Below are positions 2,793 through 9,529 of a stretch of DNA of 31,873 nucleotides, piece after piece. The translations under genes were made by a program, and so were the position numbers. Under the pieces are notes generated by a model that was given only the letters and a program-made list of their open reading frames with translations, was not told the origin of the DNA and made no database searches. Location: positions 1 through 31,873 of the forward strand of contig CAYRPF010000034.1 in the NCBI GenBank assembly GCA_964426185.1, given 5' to 3'. Source of the DNA: an uncultured archaeon. Its GTDB lineage: Archaea; Asgardarchaeota; Lokiarchaeia; Sigyniarchaeales; Promethearchaeaceae. Numbering within the stretch: position 1 is the stretch's first letter; the number at the start of each line of letters is the position of its first letter.

Positions 2793-5666
2793 GTGGCGAC
2801 CGCATATTATTTAGACCATGAAGTTGAAACTCCCGCCCACATGCAATCAATTGAGAGCATTCTCAAACGATTTCATAGTTCACCGGAAGGTTTAACGACT
2901 GAAATTGCAACTACCCGATTAAAAAAGGCAGGATCAAATGAAATCCCCAAACCTCGACGGAGCTTCTATCAAAGATATATTAAACCTGTAGTAAATCTAA
3001 TGATGCTGATTTTGTTTTTTGCAGCATTAATTCAGATCTTCTTCTATTATAAATATCATGAGGGATCTCTTTTCGGTCCTGTTGTAATTATTGTAATTTT
3101 GATTTTAAATTTAATAATTGGGATGCGTCAGCAATATAAAGCCGAAAAAACGCTGGACGCTTTGGAAAAATTAACAGCATTTAAAGCAAAGGTCCTTCGG
3201 GATGGAAAAAGAGTAGAAATTCCTACGGATAAAATTGTCCCAGGGGATATTATGATTCTCTCTCAAGGAGATTATATTTCTGCAGATGCTCGTTTAATTG
3301 AAGCAAATGATTTTTCTGTAAATGAATCCGTCTTAACTGGTGAAACAAATCCAGTGTCTAAAATCGTTGAACAACTTGATAAACGTGAACTCCCTCTTCA
3401 AGATCGAATAAATATGGTTTTTAGCTCAACGTTTGTGGCTTCAGGTAATGCAAAAGCCGTTATCACGGCCACAGGGGTATATACAGAAATTGGGAAAATT
3501 TCAAAGGGAGTCGCATTAAAAGAAACTCGTAGCATACCACTTCAACACCAAATGAATAGATTAGCTACCGGTTTAGGTCTTTTAGTGTTGGGAGTAATTA
3601 TAGCTCTTTTTATTGTCCAGTATCTAAGAACGGGTCTAACAGATTTAATTCAGCAAATTAGTTGGCTGATTTATTTAGCAGTAGCTGCAATCCCTCTGAA
3701 TTTTCCCATTATTACTACCCTTATTTTACTCTCTGGAGTAATTCAATTGGCGAAAAAACAAGCAATTGTACGTAATTTGAATGCTGTTGAAACCATGGGT
3801 AGACTGACATATATCTGTACCGATAAAACGGGAACACTGACTAAAAACGAGATGACGGTCCAGAAAATTTACCACGATGATAAAATTTATACTGTTGAGG
3901 GAATCGGATATCAACCCGAGGGACAAATAACTCTCAACGACCATCCAGTCGATTTCAGGAAAGAACTTTATCTATGGAAAATGATTAGCATCGGAGCGGT
4001 AAATAATAACGCCCAGTTACAAGAAGAAACAGCCAAACTTAAAAAAGGAAATATTAAGCGGATGAAAGTTTTTGGAATGCCTACAGAAGGAGCCTTACTT
4101 ACTTTAGCTCTTAAAGCAGGCATAAATCCAGATGCCGAAAAAGCGAGTTGTGAGATCTTAAGGGAATTTAGCTTTAGTTCTGAACGAAAACGTATGACTA
4201 AGATAGTCCGACGTGAAGGTCTTCTACAAGCAATTACTAAAGGGGCAGTGGAAGTTCTTTTACCTCTGAGTACTCACACAATAATCAATGGAGAAATTCA
4301 ACCATTAACTGATGAAATCAAGGAAAAAATTCTTGATTCTACTCAAGGTTTTGCCAAAAAAGGTCTACGAACTTTGGGTTTTGGCTACATTTCGTTAGAT
4401 GAAAATGAAGATGTTAAGAATATTTCGTCAGCAGATGCAGAAAAGAATTTGATATTCTTAGGTTTTATGGGAATTCTTGATCCGCCTCGGGAAGGAGTCC
4501 CAGAAGCGGTAAAAATATGTCAAGATGCAGGCATAAAAGTCACCATGATAACGGGAGACCATCCGATGACTGCAGTTGCGATTGCCAAAGCAACCAATAT
4601 TTATAAAAAGGGGGATTTAGTTGCAACAGGTGCAGAAATTAAAAAAATGGATGCAGATACCATCGCTAAAACCTCTATTTTCTCAAGAGTTGCTCCTGAA
4701 GATAAAGAAATCATTGTAAAATCTCTTCAAAGTAAGGATCAAATAGTTGCTATGACTGGAGATGGAGTAAATGATGCACTAGCTCTGGAAAACGCAGATG
4801 TTGGAATAGCAATGGGTTTGAAAGGAACTGATGTGGCAAAAAATGCGGCAGATCTTGTTTTAACGGATGATTCATTTAAAACAATCGAAAATGCGTTGTA
4901 CCACGGCCGAGGCTTATTTAATAACATTCGATCTACTATTGTTTATTTATTAATAATCGATTTGATGGAATTGGCAGTATTAACCACCATTTCTTTGCTA
5001 TTTGGTGAAGAATTCCTAAACTCATTCCAATTAATTATTTTATACGCCACTATTCATTTCTTTCCTCCAATTGGGTTAATTTTTGATAATTACTCACTTG
5101 ATATCATGAAAGAGCCACCAAAAAAGAAAAATGAGCCCATGATTACTCGATCTTTTAAGGTAATGATGGGGATTCAAATAATATTCATTGGATTGCTTCT
5201 AATCGGTATTTGGCATGCAGTGTATAATGGAGTAATTCCCTTAACTCCCGAAAATTTAACAGATATTTCATTTACCAATCCAATAACGAGAGTTGGACAT
5301 GTGGGATACGTATATAATGGAGAATATATTGTCTATGAACCGGGGGTAAATGATCAACTCTTTCGGATCTTTAAATCTCAATCTATGGCCTTAGTAACTT
5401 TATTCCTATGTGAAATTTGGGTTGCAATTGAATGTCGTTCATATTGGAAGAGCTTTTTGAAAAATCAATTTAATCTGGTTATGAGCATCTTACTATGGTT
5501 TTCAATCGCAATTTTGATATTTTTAACTCAAAATCCAGTTGCAAGGGCTTATCTTAATATTCTTCCTCTAAATCAAATGGATTGGATTATTTCGGTGGGG
5601 TTGTCTTTAGTTTTCCTACTATTTGTTGAAATATTAAAAGCAATTATTCGCTCCCGCCGTCACTAA
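2793..5666 (+). CDS. P-type ATPase with type IIA (SERCA/PMR1-like) architecture and non-canonical membrane ion-binding residues; GTG start
   Basis: DKTGTLT phosphorylation site, LTGET, FSSERKRM, KGA, DPPR, MITGDH, TGDGVND, about 10 TM helices; TM4 reads AAIPLNFP instead of AAIPEGLP. Confidence 0.95.
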   Translation: MATAYYLDHEVETPAHMQSIESILKRFHSSPEGLTTEIATTRLKKAGSNEIPKPRRSFYQRYIKPVVNLMMLILFFAALIQIFFYYKYHEGSLFGPVVIIVILILNLIIGMRQQYKAEKTLDALEKLTAFKAKVLRDGKRVEIPTDKIVPGDIMILSQGDYISADARLIEANDFSVNESVLTGETNPVSKIVEQLDKRELPLQDRINMVFSSTFVASGNAKAVITATGVYTEIGKISKGVALKETRSIPLQHQMNRLATGLGLLVLGVIIALFIVQYLRTGLTDLIQQISWLIYLAVAAIPLNFPIITTLILLSGVIQLAKKQAIVRNLNAVETMGRLTYICTDKTGTLTKNEMTVQKIYHDDKIYTVEGIGYQPEGQITLNDHPVDFRKELYLWKMISIGAVNNNAQLQEETAKLKKGNIKRMKVFGMPTEGALLTLALKAGINPDAEKASCEILREFSFSSERKRMTKIVRREGLLQAITKGAVEVLLPLSTHTIINGEIQPLTDEIKEKILDSTQGFAKKGLRTLGFGYISLDENEDVKNISSADAEKNLIFLGFMGILDPPREGVPEAVKICQDAGIKVTMITGDHPMTAVAIAKATNIYKKGDLVATGAEIKKMDADTIAKTSIFSRVAPEDKEIIVKSLQSKDQIVAMTGDGVNDALALENADVGIAMGLKGTDVAKNAADLVLTDDSFKTIENALYHGRGLFNNIRSTIVYLLIIDLMELAVLTTISLLFGEEFLNSFQLIILYATIHFFPPIGLIFDNYSLDIMKEPPKKKNEPMITRSFKVMMGIQIIFIGLLLIGIWHAVYNGVIPLTPENLTDISFTNPITRVGHVGYVYNGEYIVYEPGVNDQLFRIFKSQSMALVTLFLCEIWVAIECRSYWKSFLKNQFNLVMSILLWFSIAILIFLTQNPVARAYLNILPLNQMDWIISVGLSLVFLLFVEILKAIIRSRRH

Positions 5667-6765
5667 TACCTTTTTTCCTTTTCTTTTCTCTCTTTCTTTT
5701 CTCTTTCTTTTTCTCATCTTTTTTACTTTCAGTTGAGAAAAAATATTCTGCAAATTCAAAACTTCGTTTGTATGCTTCTTTTTTAGAAATTGTCGGTTCA
5801 ATTTTGTATTTATCTTCCTTTTGAGATAAATGGGGTAATTTTTCCACTAATTCTGTCATAAATCCTTTAAATTTCTCTCGATTTATTATTTTAAATTTTT
5901 CTATAAATTCATCGAATGTAAAAATTCCACCTTGAAGAAGTATTTTCTCAAATTCTTTTCGCTCTTTACTCCGTCGTCTCATCATTTTATCAAAATTTAT
6001 GCTTAGGAATATCCATATGAAAATAAACACTGAACTAAAGCTAATGAGATCGGTTTGTGGATTGACGGTTTCCGATGGTCGGAATAAAAAGAGAATTTTC
6101 CCCCACCAATAATAGTTGGCAACATCTTCAAAGAAATTTGGATCGATACTCCCTACAACATAACCTAAAAAACAAGTGATACCGGTTAAAATAGTTTTTC
6201 CAATAACACAAGGTAGAAATGTCTTGTAATAAGGATATTTCATTAAACCCATGGGAACTAAGATCATGTCATCCGGTAATGGAGAAGCGGCAAATACAAA
6301 CACAATTAAAGGAACAACTCGAGGATTTCTTTCAAATTGTTCTTTCATTCGGTGAAATTTCTCTCCTACTTCAGATTCTTTCACAGATTTTACAGACCCA
6401 ATTAATCTCCCTATGTAATAACTGATAAATTCACCTAAAGCAGCCCCCAAACCGCTAAGTAATCCAATCCAAATCCATGCATGGGGATTTTCGATGGTTA
6501 ATGTATAAATTACCAAGACGTAAGGGATTATGATCATGACTGAACTGTTGCCGATAATGGAAATAAGAAAGGATATTAGTAGATAATTTGTTGAATTTGT
6601 GCCGATATCGCGAGACCATTGAGAAATATTCTCAATTGTCGTGTATAATGGAGTGCCTTCTCGTACAACCACAACAAGAGTATAGATAATGATCAAAATA
6701 ACTAAAGTAAAAATATCAATAAATCTGAAGCGTAACGTTTTTTTTCCGAAATGAATATCTACCAT
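5644..6765 (-). CDS. DedA/VTT (SNARE-associated Golgi protein-like) membrane protein with soluble C-terminal extension
   Basis: GLGAALGEFISYYIGR, FAASPLPDD and GLMKYPYYKTFLPCVIGK match the archaeal DedA/VTT pattern; overlaps the ATPase 3' end by 23 bp. Confidence 0.85.
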   Translation of the reverse strand: MVDIHFGKKTLRFRFIDIFTLVILIIIYTLVVVVREGTPLYTTIENISQWSRDIGTNSTNYLLISFLISIIGNSSVMIIIPYVLVIYTLTIENPHAWIWIGLLSGLGAALGEFISYYIGRLIGSVKSVKESEVGEKFHRMKEQFERNPRVVPLIVFVFAASPLPDDMILVPMGLMKYPYYKTFLPCVIGKTILTGITCFLGYVVGSIDPNFFEDVANYYWWGKILFLFRPSETVNPQTDLISFSSVFIFIWIFLSINFDKMMRRRSKERKEFEKILLQGGIFTFDEFIEKFKIINREKFKGFMTELVEKLPHLSQKEDKYKIEPTISKKEAYKRSFEFAEYFFSTESKKDEKKKEKRKREKKRKKGISDGGSE

Positions 6766-6828: not shown

Positions 6829-7947
6829 ATGAAATTAATCCTTCCGATAGCTGGAGTAGGGCAGCGATTACGCCCATTTACATTTAGTAAACCTAAAGGA
6901 TTTGTTACCATTGCAGGATCCCGTGGTGTAGATCATATCCTTACCAAAATTGGAGCCAATCTCCCTAAAGAAACACCATTATGCATGATTACAGGATATA
7001 AAAGCCTACAAATTATGCAATATATGAATAAAACATACAAGGAAAAATTCGCAATTGATTATATCGAACAGACACCAGTTGGATATCAAGCGGACATACC
7101 TTATTTCTCTGGATTGGGGCATGCAATTTTGTTAACTAAAGATTGGTTTTATAATACTTCTGATGTTGTTGTTCCAGGGCGAGAACCTGATGAAACTCTA
7201 ATATTTCTAAGTGATATGATTCCTGTACGAGATTATAAATTCATTGTAGACGCTTTAGGAAATGTGAAATATGATGGGGTAATTGGCTCCATGATTGTAC
7301 CTCCTGAAAAAACACAGTTTTATGGAATATTAGAAACTGATGAAGAAAATATCATAACCAATATGGTTGAAAAGCCAAAACAGACAAATTCTACTCAAGC
7401 GATATCGGGAGTTTATGCATTTAAAGCAAAAACAATACGGAGATTATATGAGATTTTGGATCAGCAATTCAGCCAACATGAATCTGAAATTCAGCAGGGA
7501 ATTAGACAACGAATGGAATTTCAATTTACTCCAGCCCTTCAACAGTTAGTTGAAGAAGGATTTTGCATACTCAGTGCCCCATTTTCTGATGGAATTTTAG
7601 ATTTTGGCAGACCAGAAGCATTATTAGAGAGCAATCGAATTTTATTAGAAGCCCATCAAGCCAGAGTGGAAGGTGAAATTGCCAAAATCGAAAATTCTTA
7701 TATAGAAAATCCTTGTGCGATTGGAGCAGGAACTAAAATAACTCGATCTGTAATTGGTCCATACGTCAGTATCGGGAAGAGTTGTGTGATAGAAGACTGT
7801 AATTTACAAAATGTTGTGATTGGAGACCACTGCTACCTAAAAAACATCATTACTGCAGAGTCAATTATTGGAGATGAGGTAAAAATCGATTCTGTAATAA
7901 AAAATAAGATTACTTTGGGGGATAACAGTTACTTGCTGGAATTATAG
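6829..7947 (+). CDS. Sugar-1-phosphate nucleotidyltransferase with C-terminal left-handed beta-helix
   Basis: AGVGQRLRPFTFSKPK signature, GLGHAI, VEKP, DFGRPE and hexapeptide repeats (IGPYVSIGKSCVI). Confidence 0.9.
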   Translation: MKLILPIAGVGQRLRPFTFSKPKGFVTIAGSRGVDHILTKIGANLPKETPLCMITGYKSLQIMQYMNKTYKEKFAIDYIEQTPVGYQADIPYFSGLGHAILLTKDWFYNTSDVVVPGREPDETLIFLSDMIPVRDYKFIVDALGNVKYDGVIGSMIVPPEKTQFYGILETDEENIITNMVEKPKQTNSTQAISGVYAFKAKTIRRLYEILDQQFSQHESEIQQGIRQRMEFQFTPALQQLVEEGFCILSAPFSDGILDFGRPEALLESNRILLEAHQARVEGEIAKIENSYIENPCAIGAGTKITRSVIGPYVSIGKSCVIEDCNLQNVVIGDHCYLKNIITAESIIGDEVKIDSVIKNKITLGDNSYLLEL

Positions 7948-7999: not shown

Positions 8000-9529
8000 A
8001 TGCCATCAAAACCTTTTACAGTTGGATTTTATACAATAAAATCTCGTGGAAAAATAGATAGTAACTATAAAACTCTCGCTCAATTATTGCAAAATAGTGG
8101 ATTTGAACCAATTAAATTTACAGAATTTCCGATATCCCGCCATAATTTAGCAACAATTGACATATTAGTCATTCCTTGCCCAGATAATCATAAATTCAAT
8201 AAAACTGAAATCCAAGCGATAAAAAGTTGGGTTGCTGAAGATGGAGGAGGAATATTTATGCTTAGTCATGCGGGAGGCGATAAAGGCCGCCGTACTAATT
8301 TATCAGAACTTTCAGAACAATTTGGGATGGTTTTTGAAAATAATCAAGTACTTGATAAATTTCATAATCAAGGTGTTGAAAATCTCCCGATTATTGAAAA
8401 TTTTTCAGTTCCCCATCCTATTAATGAAAATCTTCACAGAATTGTTTTTCGAGCAGGTTGTAGTCTTTCAACAACTGGAATTAACGTTACTCCAGTTATT
8501 TCTTCTGGTCCAAAAGCAGATCCATTTGAATCTCCTTTGATACTTGCATGTGAAGATGGAGAAGGAAGAGCGGTGGCAATAGGTTCATATGAAATGTTTC
8601 GAGATAAGATCACAGGGGGAATTAACCAAGATGACCATCGACAATTAGGTTTAAATATTTTTAATTGGTTAAAAACTACGCGTAGAGAACAAATTAAAGA
8701 GGGTATTACTCCAAATATTTCACTTTCTAATTCATTTTCCGCGGATAAAACATCTACTACGAATCCCCAAATAACACCACAATTCCCAAACGCATCAACC
8801 GATGTACAATTTCAACCTTATATTGGTGCAAAGACCTATGAATCAAATGTTAAAATTTTAGCAGGAGAAGATTTGTTAAATGCCTTTGAATCAACCTTGA
8901 ATGAATTCTTCACTTTCAAACAACGTGTTTTAGAAGACTTAAACAAATTTGAGACCAATCTCGCGTTGCTCATGAAAGCAGTGCTTGCTTCTGAAAAAGA
9001 TATAATCGCCTTCAAACAACAGCAAGCATTAGAATCAAATTCAAGTGAATCTTCAACATTTAATAAATCAACTAAATCACAAGAATCTTCATCAAAAACA
9101 ACCACAAACGATCTCAGCGGAATGACTTCAACAAGCCCTACTCCCGATGAAGTTTTTGCAGATTTGAAGAAAGATTTTATTAAAACATCTAACTCTTCCC
9201 CAGAGATTGAAACAGCAATTGAAACACCTGCAGAAGTTAAATTGCGACAGAAACCAATTAAATCAACCTTATCATCTCCCTCTGCCAAAACTTCTTTAAA
9301 ACCAGATAATGTATCGGTTCATAAAACCAAGAAAGAGCTAGAAGATGAAATTATTACTTTGGAGAATAAACTAAACAGCATCAAAAATTTAAGAGAATTC
9401 GTAGAAAAAAAATTTGCTTCGGGAAATCTATCAGAAAAGCGCTATCAAAAACAAATTAAAAAATTAGATCAAGATGTGGAAGAAACGAAGTCAAGATTAA
9501 ACGAAATTCGAGATACACTCAAAAATTGA
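8000..9529 (+). CDS. GIFT (GldG/IFT52-like) domain protein with Ser/Thr-rich linker and C-terminal coiled coil; no signal peptide
   Basis: P-x2-3-KF-x3-E-x3-IK, GGG.F, GG-x5-TNL, FG and AVAIGSYEMF.D...FNWL motifs are collinear with the IFT52 N-terminal domain as recalled; heptad-rich C-terminus. Confidence 0.75.
   Translation: MPSKPFTVGFYTIKSRGKIDSNYKTLAQLLQNSGFEPIKFTEFPISRHNLATIDILVIPCPDNHKFNKTEIQAIKSWVAEDGGGIFMLSHAGGDKGRRTNLSELSEQFGMVFENNQVLDKFHNQGVENLPIIENFSVPHPINENLHRIVFRAGCSLSTTGINVTPVISSGPKADPFESPLILACEDGEGRAVAIGSYEMFRDKITGGINQDDHRQLGLNIFNWLKTTRREQIKEGITPNISLSNSFSADKTSTTNPQITPQFPNASTDVQFQPYIGAKTYESNVKILAGEDLLNAFESTLNEFFTFKQRVLEDLNKFETNLALLMKAVLASEKDIIAFKQQQALESNSSESSTFNKSTKSQESSSKTTTNDLSGMTSTSPTPDEVFADLKKDFIKTSNSSPEIETAIETPAEVKLRQKPIKSTLSSPSAKTSLKPDNVSVHKTKKELEDEIITLENKLNSIKNLREFVEKKFASGNLSEKRYQKQIKKLDQDVEETKSRLNEIRDTLKN

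Follow-up and report, generated by a model that had tools for sequence, protein, structure and literature searches.

The window analysed here is a stretch of 31,873 nucleotides from an uncultured archaeon of the Promethearchaeaceae (Asgardarchaeota, Lokiarchaeia; assembly GCA_964426185.1, contig CAYRPF010000034.1, positions 1 to 31,873 of the forward strand), and the gene in question, at 2793-5666 on its plus strand, encodes a P-type ATPase, referred to below as the window ATPase. The genes around it are, in order: a cysteinyl-tRNA synthetase (CysRS) gene (+), a gene for a TPR protein (-), the ATPase gene (+), a DedA/VTT gene (-), a sugar nucleotidyltransferase gene (+), and a gene for a GIFT-domain protein (+). 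In the membrane part of the ATPase, the residues that form the Ca2+ sites of SERCA are partly replaced by a different set, which is conserved throughout a family of Asgard genes with the motif P-x-N-x-P in the fourth transmembrane helix (M4; the PxNxP family), and the protein may be a pump for a cation other than Ca2+.

Family genes were collected by a scan of GTDB, one genome per species, for P-x-N-x-P located 43 codons before DKTGT; the scan is a sample, and its counts refer to the matches listed. For the residue counts, these genes were pooled with protein matches, giving at least 170 genes with a residue other than Glu after the M4 Pro, and the denominators are the readable genes. The features of the window ATPase gene are as follows, with the equivalent SERCA residues in brackets.

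2793-5666, plus strand: the P-type ATPase gene (open reading frame list, translation and Pfam), 957 amino acids from GTG 2793, with ATG 2838 as alternative start.
2985-2987, plus strand: P65 in M1 (Q56), family-specific; Pro in 158/158 readable family genes, Gln in 40/40 canonical pumps.
3132-3134, plus strand: Q114 in M2 (E109); Gln in 160/163 family genes, Glu in 40/40 canonical pumps.
3336-3347, plus strand: A-domain dephosphorylation motif TGET (translation; LTGET is residues 181-185).
3693-3707, plus strand: M4 motif PLNFP in place of PEGLP, with L302 (E309) and N303 (G310), read as AAIPLNFP.
3822-3836, plus strand: phosphorylation motif DKTGT with D344 (translation and alignment); the M4 Pro lies 43 residues upstream, as in SERCA.
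4755-4778, plus strand: hinge motif TGDGVNDA (translation and alignment).
4938-4982, plus strand: M5 segment YLLIIDLMEL with D723 (N768) and E726 (E771); position 726 is Glu in 162/162 family genes.
5025-5078, plus strand: M6 segment with Y751 (N796), I754 (T799) and H755 (D800), from the HMMER and MAFFT alignments.
5226-5351, plus strand: extracellular M7/M8 loop insertion with the family-conserved E820-N821, modelled as a small beta-sheet.
5391-5441, plus strand: M8 segment, in which E874 (E908) lies together with W876 and E880, both specific to the subclade; position 874 is Glu in 147/151 family genes.

The open reading frame at 2793-5666 is free of stops over its 957 codons and is the sole long frame at its position, with a start codon that is ambiguous by 15 codons at most. 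Pfam recognizes five P-type ATPase domains in it (Cation_ATPase_N, E1-E2_ATPase, HAD hydrolase, Cation_ATPase, and Cation_ATPase_C), and the hallmarks of P-type ATPases as a superfamily (HAD-IC) are all found, namely DKTGT, TGE, GDGxND, and the N, P and A domains, along with a score of 288.7 bits on TIGR01494 against a cut-off of 62.3. The TGE of the A domain is invariant in the alignment; the fourth residue varies across the family (TGE[S/T/P/I/V/A]) and also within the PxNFP subclade, the narrower group to which the window ATPase belongs. The combination of P-x-N-x-P with DKTGT 43 residues on occurs once in the window and in 0/100 shuffles. Thus, the gene encodes a complete P-type ATPase with an intact phosphorylation engine, and activity is expected. 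The motifs quoted by an earlier reading of this DNA, made from its letters alone (the sequence-only reading), were all recovered in the translation: LTGET, AAIPLNFP, DKTGT, TGDGVNDA, YLLIIDLMEL, QLIILYATIHFFPP, and the M8 Glu.

Relative to the P2B, P2C, P2D, P3, P4 and P5 classes, the window ATPase was placed by its profile scores and by the ranking of its fold matches rather than by a tree. The best solved relatives by sequence are SPCA1, Listeria LMCA1 and SERCA, with E-values of about 1e-122 to 1e-112. Among the NCBIfam profiles, the PMR1-type calcium pump profile (TIGR01522) gives 493 bits against a cut-off of 798 and the SERCA-type profile (TIGR01116) 482 against 703, followed by the P5 profile (TIGR01657; 223 against 618), the heavy-metal profile (218 against 346), and the P4 profile (TIGR01652; 133 against 431), on which no gene anywhere in the genome scores above the cut-off. 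An AlphaFold2 (AF2) model built from 77 sequences (mean predicted local distance difference test (pLDDT) score 85.1, predicted TM-score 0.77) has SERCA2b, SPCA1 and SERCA1 as its top Foldseek matches, with TM-scores of 0.7-0.8, and its best 50 fold matches in the PDB are all P2 pumps, first SERCA and SPCA and then Na,K- and H,K-ATPases, with none from P4 or P5. By sequence, profile and modelled fold, the window ATPase is P2-like, and not P4 or P5.

With the P2A pumps (SERCA1/2, SPCA1/PMR1, LMCA1), the window ATPase shares the domain order, the ten-helix layout, the TGE, DKTGT and TGDGVNDA motifs, the spacing of 43 residues after the M4 Pro, and the M5 and M8 Glu. It differs from them in lacking the Glu of the M4 PEGL and the N-x-x-T-D of M6, and in carrying Pro at the position of Q56 and Gln at that of E109. 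The residue equivalences come from a HMMER alignment to SPCA1, which pairs L302 with the Glu of PEGL, Y751 with the Asn of M6 and H755 with the Asp of M6, and from a MAFFT alignment of 120 sequences that includes canonical PEGLP pumps, which agrees and adds the equivalences of D723 with N768, E726 with E771, and E874 with E908. From SERCA to the window ATPase, the replacements are E309 to L302, G310 to N303, N768 to D723, N796 to Y751, T799 to I754, and D800 to H755 (M6 of the window ATPase reads QLIILYATIHFFPP in translation), which upholds the five substitutions that had been aligned by hand in the sequence-only reading (E309L, N796Y, T799I, D800H and N768D).

Mutagenesis of SERCA has shown that E309 and D800 are essential for Ca2+ binding. 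The window ATPase lacks both and keeps two of the four SERCA carboxylates, E771 (as E726) and E908 (as E874). The proposal that the gating carboxylates were lost in concert therefore holds in that the change is concerted and conserved and includes E309 and D800, but not for E771 and E908, whose equivalents are retained.

The altered site is a family character. Position 303 in M4 is Asn in 170/170 family genes, position 302 is always Ile, Phe, Leu, Val or Met, and position 755 in M6 is His in 157/157 family genes, as against Asp in 51/60 readable PE-type pumps; the window ATPase has all six family residues, that is, the M4 P-hydrophobic-N-x-P, the M5 Glu, the M6 His, the M8 Glu, the M1 Pro, and the M2 Gln. 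Family-specific residues also occur in the cytoplasmic N and P domains (R337, N404, G524 and Q646). In the M7/M8 insertion, DSSP assigns strands to residues 826-846 of the AF2 model (block-mean pLDDT about 88-96); N821 is kept in both clades, and the whole segment is missing from the canonical prokaryotic pumps aligned. The conservation of the M4 motif and of the M6 His across Asgard relatives, which the sequence-only reading had left to be checked, is thus borne out, and its doubt that close orthologs might keep PEGL and NxxTD is removed: about 160 genes have the motif set without variation, so strain-specific decay can be ruled out.

A search of 5.8 billion proteins returned two tiers of relatives ahead of the canonical PEGLP pumps. 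The close tier (44-84% identity) is labelled Lokiarchaeial throughout, includes Lokiarchaeum ossiferum and Harpocratesius, and has the signature AIP[F/L/I/M]NFP ... E ... LY..xHFFPP ... E; the second tier (35-40% identity) comes from Hod-, Thor-, Hermod-, Ran- and Lokiarchaeia and has the signature MPIN[I/L]P ... N..E ... xHxFPG ... E. A full-length tree, for which the P1B pump of the genome served as outgroup, unites the PxNxP genes in a single clade at a Shimodaira-Hasegawa-like support of 1.0, with the window ATPase inside it and the PxNFP subclade supported at 0.99. A tree of the A, N and P domain columns only, from which all site columns were excluded, recovers the PxNxP clade at 0.994 and the PxNFP subclade at 0.995, and in both trees the PxNxP clade is separate from the PEGLP pumps. 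Because the cytoplasmic domains by themselves still give one clade, convergence of the motifs in unrelated pumps is ruled out, and the aligned sequences indicate that the PxNxP family has a single origin.

The genome (3.26 Mb, 92% complete) contains six P-type ATPases: one P1B pump with CPC, one canonical pump with AIPEGLP, and four PxNxP paralogs with PLNFP (the window ATPase), PVNIP, PINLP and PINIP. The canonical pump (contig C92) reaches 701 and 721 bits on the SERCA-type and PMR1-type profiles; the four PxNxP paralogs score 300-493 bits on the calcium pump profiles, and none reaches a curated cut-off. It should be noted that the hinge region of the PVNIP paralog (contig C40, 16305-19145, minus strand) is a run of N, appearing as X in the translation, so it is masked or unassembled bases, and not decay, that lower its profile scores. 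Sequence identity between the window ATPase and its three paralogs is only 35-38%, close to the value with the canonical pump. The window ATPase shares with these sisters (PxN[IL]P; contigs C9, C40 and C80) the Asn/Glu/His/Glu set, P65, Q114, the M7/M8 insertion, and the clade, to which its own subclade adds F304, Y751, F756, W876, E880 and H704, with the N768 position relaxed. Within the subclade, position 751 is Tyr in 36/37 genes, position 880 is Glu in 33/35 (Gln, Ser or Thr elsewhere), and position 723 is mixed (N16/L11/A6/D4). At positions 751, 754 and 880 of the pocket, the four paralogs of the genome have different residues, and their selectivities may therefore differ. The presence of a canonical PEGLP pump beside four PxNxP paralogs in one genome suggests a division of labour, in support of a substrate other than Ca2+. 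Many Asgard genomes have a PINLP-type and a PINIP-type paralog as tandem genes on one strand, separated by about 3 kb (seven loci of the collection, and also genomes G008-G117), and the members of this conserved pair may work together.

The generic pattern was found in 59/121 sampled Asgard genomes and in 34/52 of those of high quality. Some families have it almost throughout (14/16, 15/17, 15/17 and 4/4), and in others that were sampled it was not found (0/9, 0/7 and 0/6); there are up to five copies per genome; the named records among the matches listed belong to Loki-, Thor-, Hermod-, Hod-, Heimdall-, Odin- and Atabeyarchaeia. Members of the PxNFP subclade occur in 5/301 sampled genomes, all of the window genome's own family, the Promethearchaeaceae, and include those of Harpocratesius and of the cultured Promethearchaeum syntrophicum MK-D1 and Lokiarchaeum ossiferum. 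The full PINIP...H...E signature also occurs, among the matches listed, in metagenome-assembled genomes with other labels, namely two Nitrososphaeria, a Methanomethylicus and an Aerophobetes, which could reflect horizontal transfer or mis-binned contigs.

Bacterial matches of the scan (Actinomycetota, Clostridia and Saccharibacteria) were rejected as family members, because all those listed read PEN[LM]P and thus keep the Glu of E309; the matches from Clostridia and Saccharibacteria also keep N...TD and are ordinary cation pumps. Nine Actinomycetota pumps with PEN[LM]P lack the M5 Glu and the M6 Asp in a preliminary alignment of M5-M8, and would form another non-canonical P-type group, possibly the CtpE-like family of PMC5615198. 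At eight Saccharibacteria loci, a PENLP pump and a cysteinyl-tRNA synthetase gene lie within one 8-kb block; this echo of the CysRS gene two genes upstream of the window ATPase is probably a coincidence.

No published description of the PxNxP family was found in the literature on Asgard or Lokiarchaeota P-type ATPases, Asgard P4 pumps, uncharacterised P-type families, and the evolution of P2A and P5A. Relatives are annotated in databases as Ca2+-ATPases, an ESM Atlas look-up returned generic cation-ATPase clusters only, and a paper on the Asgard transportome lists merely "putative Ca2+ ATPase" orthologues (PMC7997004). The view of the sequence-only reading that this is not a normal Ca2+ pump gains support from the family-wide conservation of the altered site, and its suggestion of an uncharacterised subfamily is supported by one conserved clade that has gone undescribed in the literature searched, which removes the case of a clade already characterised that it had named as a refutation.

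It is proposed, with a probability of about one half, that the window ATPase belongs to an Asgard offshoot of the P2 lineage of calcium pumps and works as a P-type (E1-E2) pump whose cation is not Ca2+. As the Pro-x-x-x-Pro frame of M4 is kept, M4 would still be unwound as in SERCA. The transport site has been remodelled in one concerted step, in which: Ca2+ site II was erased by a hydrophobic residue at the E309 position and a Tyr at that of N796; the acidic cytoplasmic entry funnel was neutralised by the exchanges of E109 to Gln and of Q56 to Pro (both positions of the cytoplasmic Ca2+ entry path in SERCA); and what would remain is a pocket like site I, made up of N303 (M4), E726 (M5), H755 (M6) and E874 (M8). 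Homology to the site-I and site-II positions of SERCA suggests that these four residues line one pocket, which in the PxNFP subclade would additionally hold Y751, W876 and E880. This pocket would bind and move one cationic substrate other than Ca2+; the foremost candidates are a transition metal in divalent form, to which the His and the carboxylates would be suited, or H+ by way of a Glu-His relay.

Substrate classes of P-type ATPases are defined by a handful of transmembrane residues, and a new, strictly conserved set usually means a new substrate. That two buried Glu and a His are retained speaks for a ligand that carries charge, and the invariance of the two Glu together with the new His makes the Asn/Glu/His/Glu set look like an ionic site that has been rebuilt and not taken apart. 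By analogy, the M6 His might be a ligand or an intrinsic counter-ion, like the sixth-helix His of the P1B-4 pumps (sCoaT type, HEGxT in TM6), in which a conserved His in the sixth core helix likewise lies beside carboxylate ligands; in a solved P1B-4 metal pump, this His is an internal counter-ion (Palmgren 2023, PMC10654040). The likeness does not extend further, as P1B pumps have eight helices and an SPC motif in M4.

Several observations weigh against a cation as the cargo. No metal-binding N-terminal domain is matched by Pfam in the open reading frame, and among the neighbours conserved across the nine PxNFP-subclade loci examined there is no gene for a metal regulator, a chaperone or ion homeostasis. 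Neutralisation of the entry funnel is unexpected for a divalent cation, and a substrate of amphipathic or organic nature would likewise fit the hydrophobic residue 302 and the aromatic-rich pocket of the subclade (F302, F304, Y751, F756, F757 and W876). A cargo that is a lipid, a polyprenyl phosphate or an organic cation, all of these taken together, is a serious though doubtful possibility. Somewhat more doubtful is the fuller proposal that the PxNxP lineage left inorganic-ion transport altogether and carries such a cargo by way of an M4 pocket with a hydrophobic gate, at some loci together with a DedA subfamily of its own.

In particular, the window ATPase could be a translocase for a lipid or polyprenyl phosphate, in which the hydrophobic residue of M4 serves as a gate, as does the Ile of PISL, the M4 motif of the P4 pumps, and which may work with a DedA-type protein; this is unlikely. 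The likeness to the P4 flippases (ATP8A1/ATP8A2, Drs2p) consists in a hydrophobic residue at the E309 position that is followed by a small polar one (PISL and PLNF, motifs that differ in sequence), a feature of every family gene listed, and in the absence of a carboxylate from M4 and from the D800 position; the loss of the acidic ion funnel and the aromatic-rich pocket of the subclade would fit as well. However, the two buried Glu and the M6 His, invariant in the family, are unlike P4 sites, the A domain reads TGE[T/S] (TGET in the window ATPase) and not DGET, and the P4 score and the fold matches given above point to P2. In the form that the sequence-only reading had given it, the parallel with P4 pumps is not supported: it comes down to the hydrophobic residue at the E309 position, with TGET, the P4 score and the P2 fold matches speaking against it. 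No match to CDC50/LEM3 (PF03381) was obtained in the 92% complete genome, nor in 14 control genomes, so that this search is without a positive control. The features that were tested give no tie to eukaryotic lipid flippases.

The genomic neighbourhood is the other line of evidence that has to be weighed for a lipid cargo. The DedA/VTT gene (5644-6765, minus strand) encodes 373 amino acids, many more than is usual in the DedA family, and shares 23 bp with the 3' end of the ATPase gene. It is divergent from the gene for a sugar nucleotidyltransferase with an LbH domain (6829-7947, plus strand), and the two are conserved in relatives at 68% and 76% identity. The two nearest relatives have the same order, CysRS-TPR-ATPase; in one, the nearest relative with enough flanking sequence, the DedA-nucleotidyltransferase pair lies 2.7 kb off, with three genes between the ATPase and DedA. 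Since the pair stays together apart from the ATPase, the stable partner of DedA is the nucleotidyltransferase, and the two look like a glycan or polyprenyl-phosphate unit that is independent of the ATPase. DedA was not seen at six other PxNFP-subclade loci within the sequence examined, of which one contig (L007) ends 1.8 kb downstream of the ATPase. Thus, DedA beside the window ATPase is a local juxtaposition in the lineage, and the neighbourhoods of relatives leave DedA unsupported as a functional partner in the PxNFP subclade.

At the level of the whole family, a DedA homologue is found at 6 of about 112 loci, where naive chance would predict about one (three VTT genes per 3.26 Mb). At four of the six (one labelled Promethearchaeota, one Hodarchaeota, and two further archaeal loci), DedA is directly adjacent and on the same strand, and these four DedAs resemble that of the window more than they resemble the two other VTT paralogs of the genome; at locus L094, the DedA gene is flanked by two ATPase genes in tandem. 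A join of contigs C80 and C44, which would put a DedA gene after the paralog on C80, was rejected, as their ends showed no overlap. The association with the DedA family is real, but it is a minority trait at the family level, and it serves as a lead only at that level. Moreover, DedA proteins are linked to the transport of lipids and polyprenyl phosphates and also to ion, proton-dependent and proton-motive-force functions, so the adjacency does not discriminate between the two kinds of cargo and leaves the cargo unsettled.

Other gene arrangements around family members were noted. In the window, the nucleotidyltransferase gene is adjoined by a gene for a 509-amino-acid protein with an IFT52-type GIFT domain (8000-9529, plus strand; PF23355, E-value 1e-14). 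Three other PxNFP loci (L010, L135 and L137) have the order RNase PH, ATPase, HEAT-repeat protein, and a 370-amino-acid multi-pass membrane protein. On contig C14 of the window genome (10008-13232), RNase PH, the HEAT protein and the membrane protein are kept, with a gap of 477 bp where the ATPase would be; an operon of the ATPase with the HEAT and membrane proteins was therefore rejected, and the arrangement is treated as inherited synteny. At locus L138, a gene for an Arf/Ras-family small GTPase (6838-7350) starts 21 bp past the ATPase stop on the same strand.

The second alternative, a pump for organic cations such as polyamines or methylated amines, held by Glu and an aromatic cage as in eukaryotic P5B pumps, is improbable and is a pure analogy. 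The P5B motif PPALP lacks a carboxylate, as does the M4 of the window ATPase, and the subclade adds Phe, Tyr and Trp around two Glu, with the funnel for inorganic cations neutralised. Nevertheless, the P5 profile gives just 223 bits against its cut-off of 618, neither of the P5 M4 motifs (PP[D/E]LP and PPALP) is seen in the window ATPase, whose M4 reads AIPLNFP, the aromatic enrichment is confined to the subclade, and no polyamine-metabolism genes are neighbours at the loci examined.

It is very improbable that the window ATPase still pumps Ca2+ or Mn2+ by means of alternative ligands: SPCA1, LMCA1 and SERCA are the best matches by sequence and fold, the equivalents of E771 and E908 are kept, and relatives are annotated as Ca2+-ATPases, but every family member has other residues in place of E309 and D800, a canonical PEGLP pump is present in the genome in any case, and the scores are far below the curated cut-offs for calcium pumps. 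That it is a non-transporting relic or a regulatory ATPase, as the heavily altered substrate site might suggest, is scarcely credible, since no catalytic motif is damaged, the residues of the pocket do not vary over about 160 diverged genes from several Asgard classes, and multiple paralogs are kept per genome.

The PxNxP family is large, is present in about half of the sampled Asgard genomes, and is uniformly annotated as calcium or cation ATPase; therefore, inferences about ion homeostasis and "Ca2+ signalling" in Asgard archaea, which of all archaea are the closest to eukaryotes, rest in part on mislabelled genes. In a 2023 review, P4 and P5 pumps are considered eukaryote-specific, without prokaryotic counterparts or relatives, and PxNxP genes are unmentioned (Palmgren 2023, PMC10654040). 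If the family had indeed left inorganic-ion transport, the PxNxP pumps would represent an Asgard parallel, or a distant forerunner, of the shift to large substrates in the eukaryotic P4 and P5 pumps. An Asgard lineage without the classical cation site is the obvious place to ask whether non-ionic transport predates eukaryotes. The orthologues of the subclade in the cultured Promethearchaeum syntrophicum MK-D1 and Lokiarchaeum ossiferum make this question experimentally accessible.

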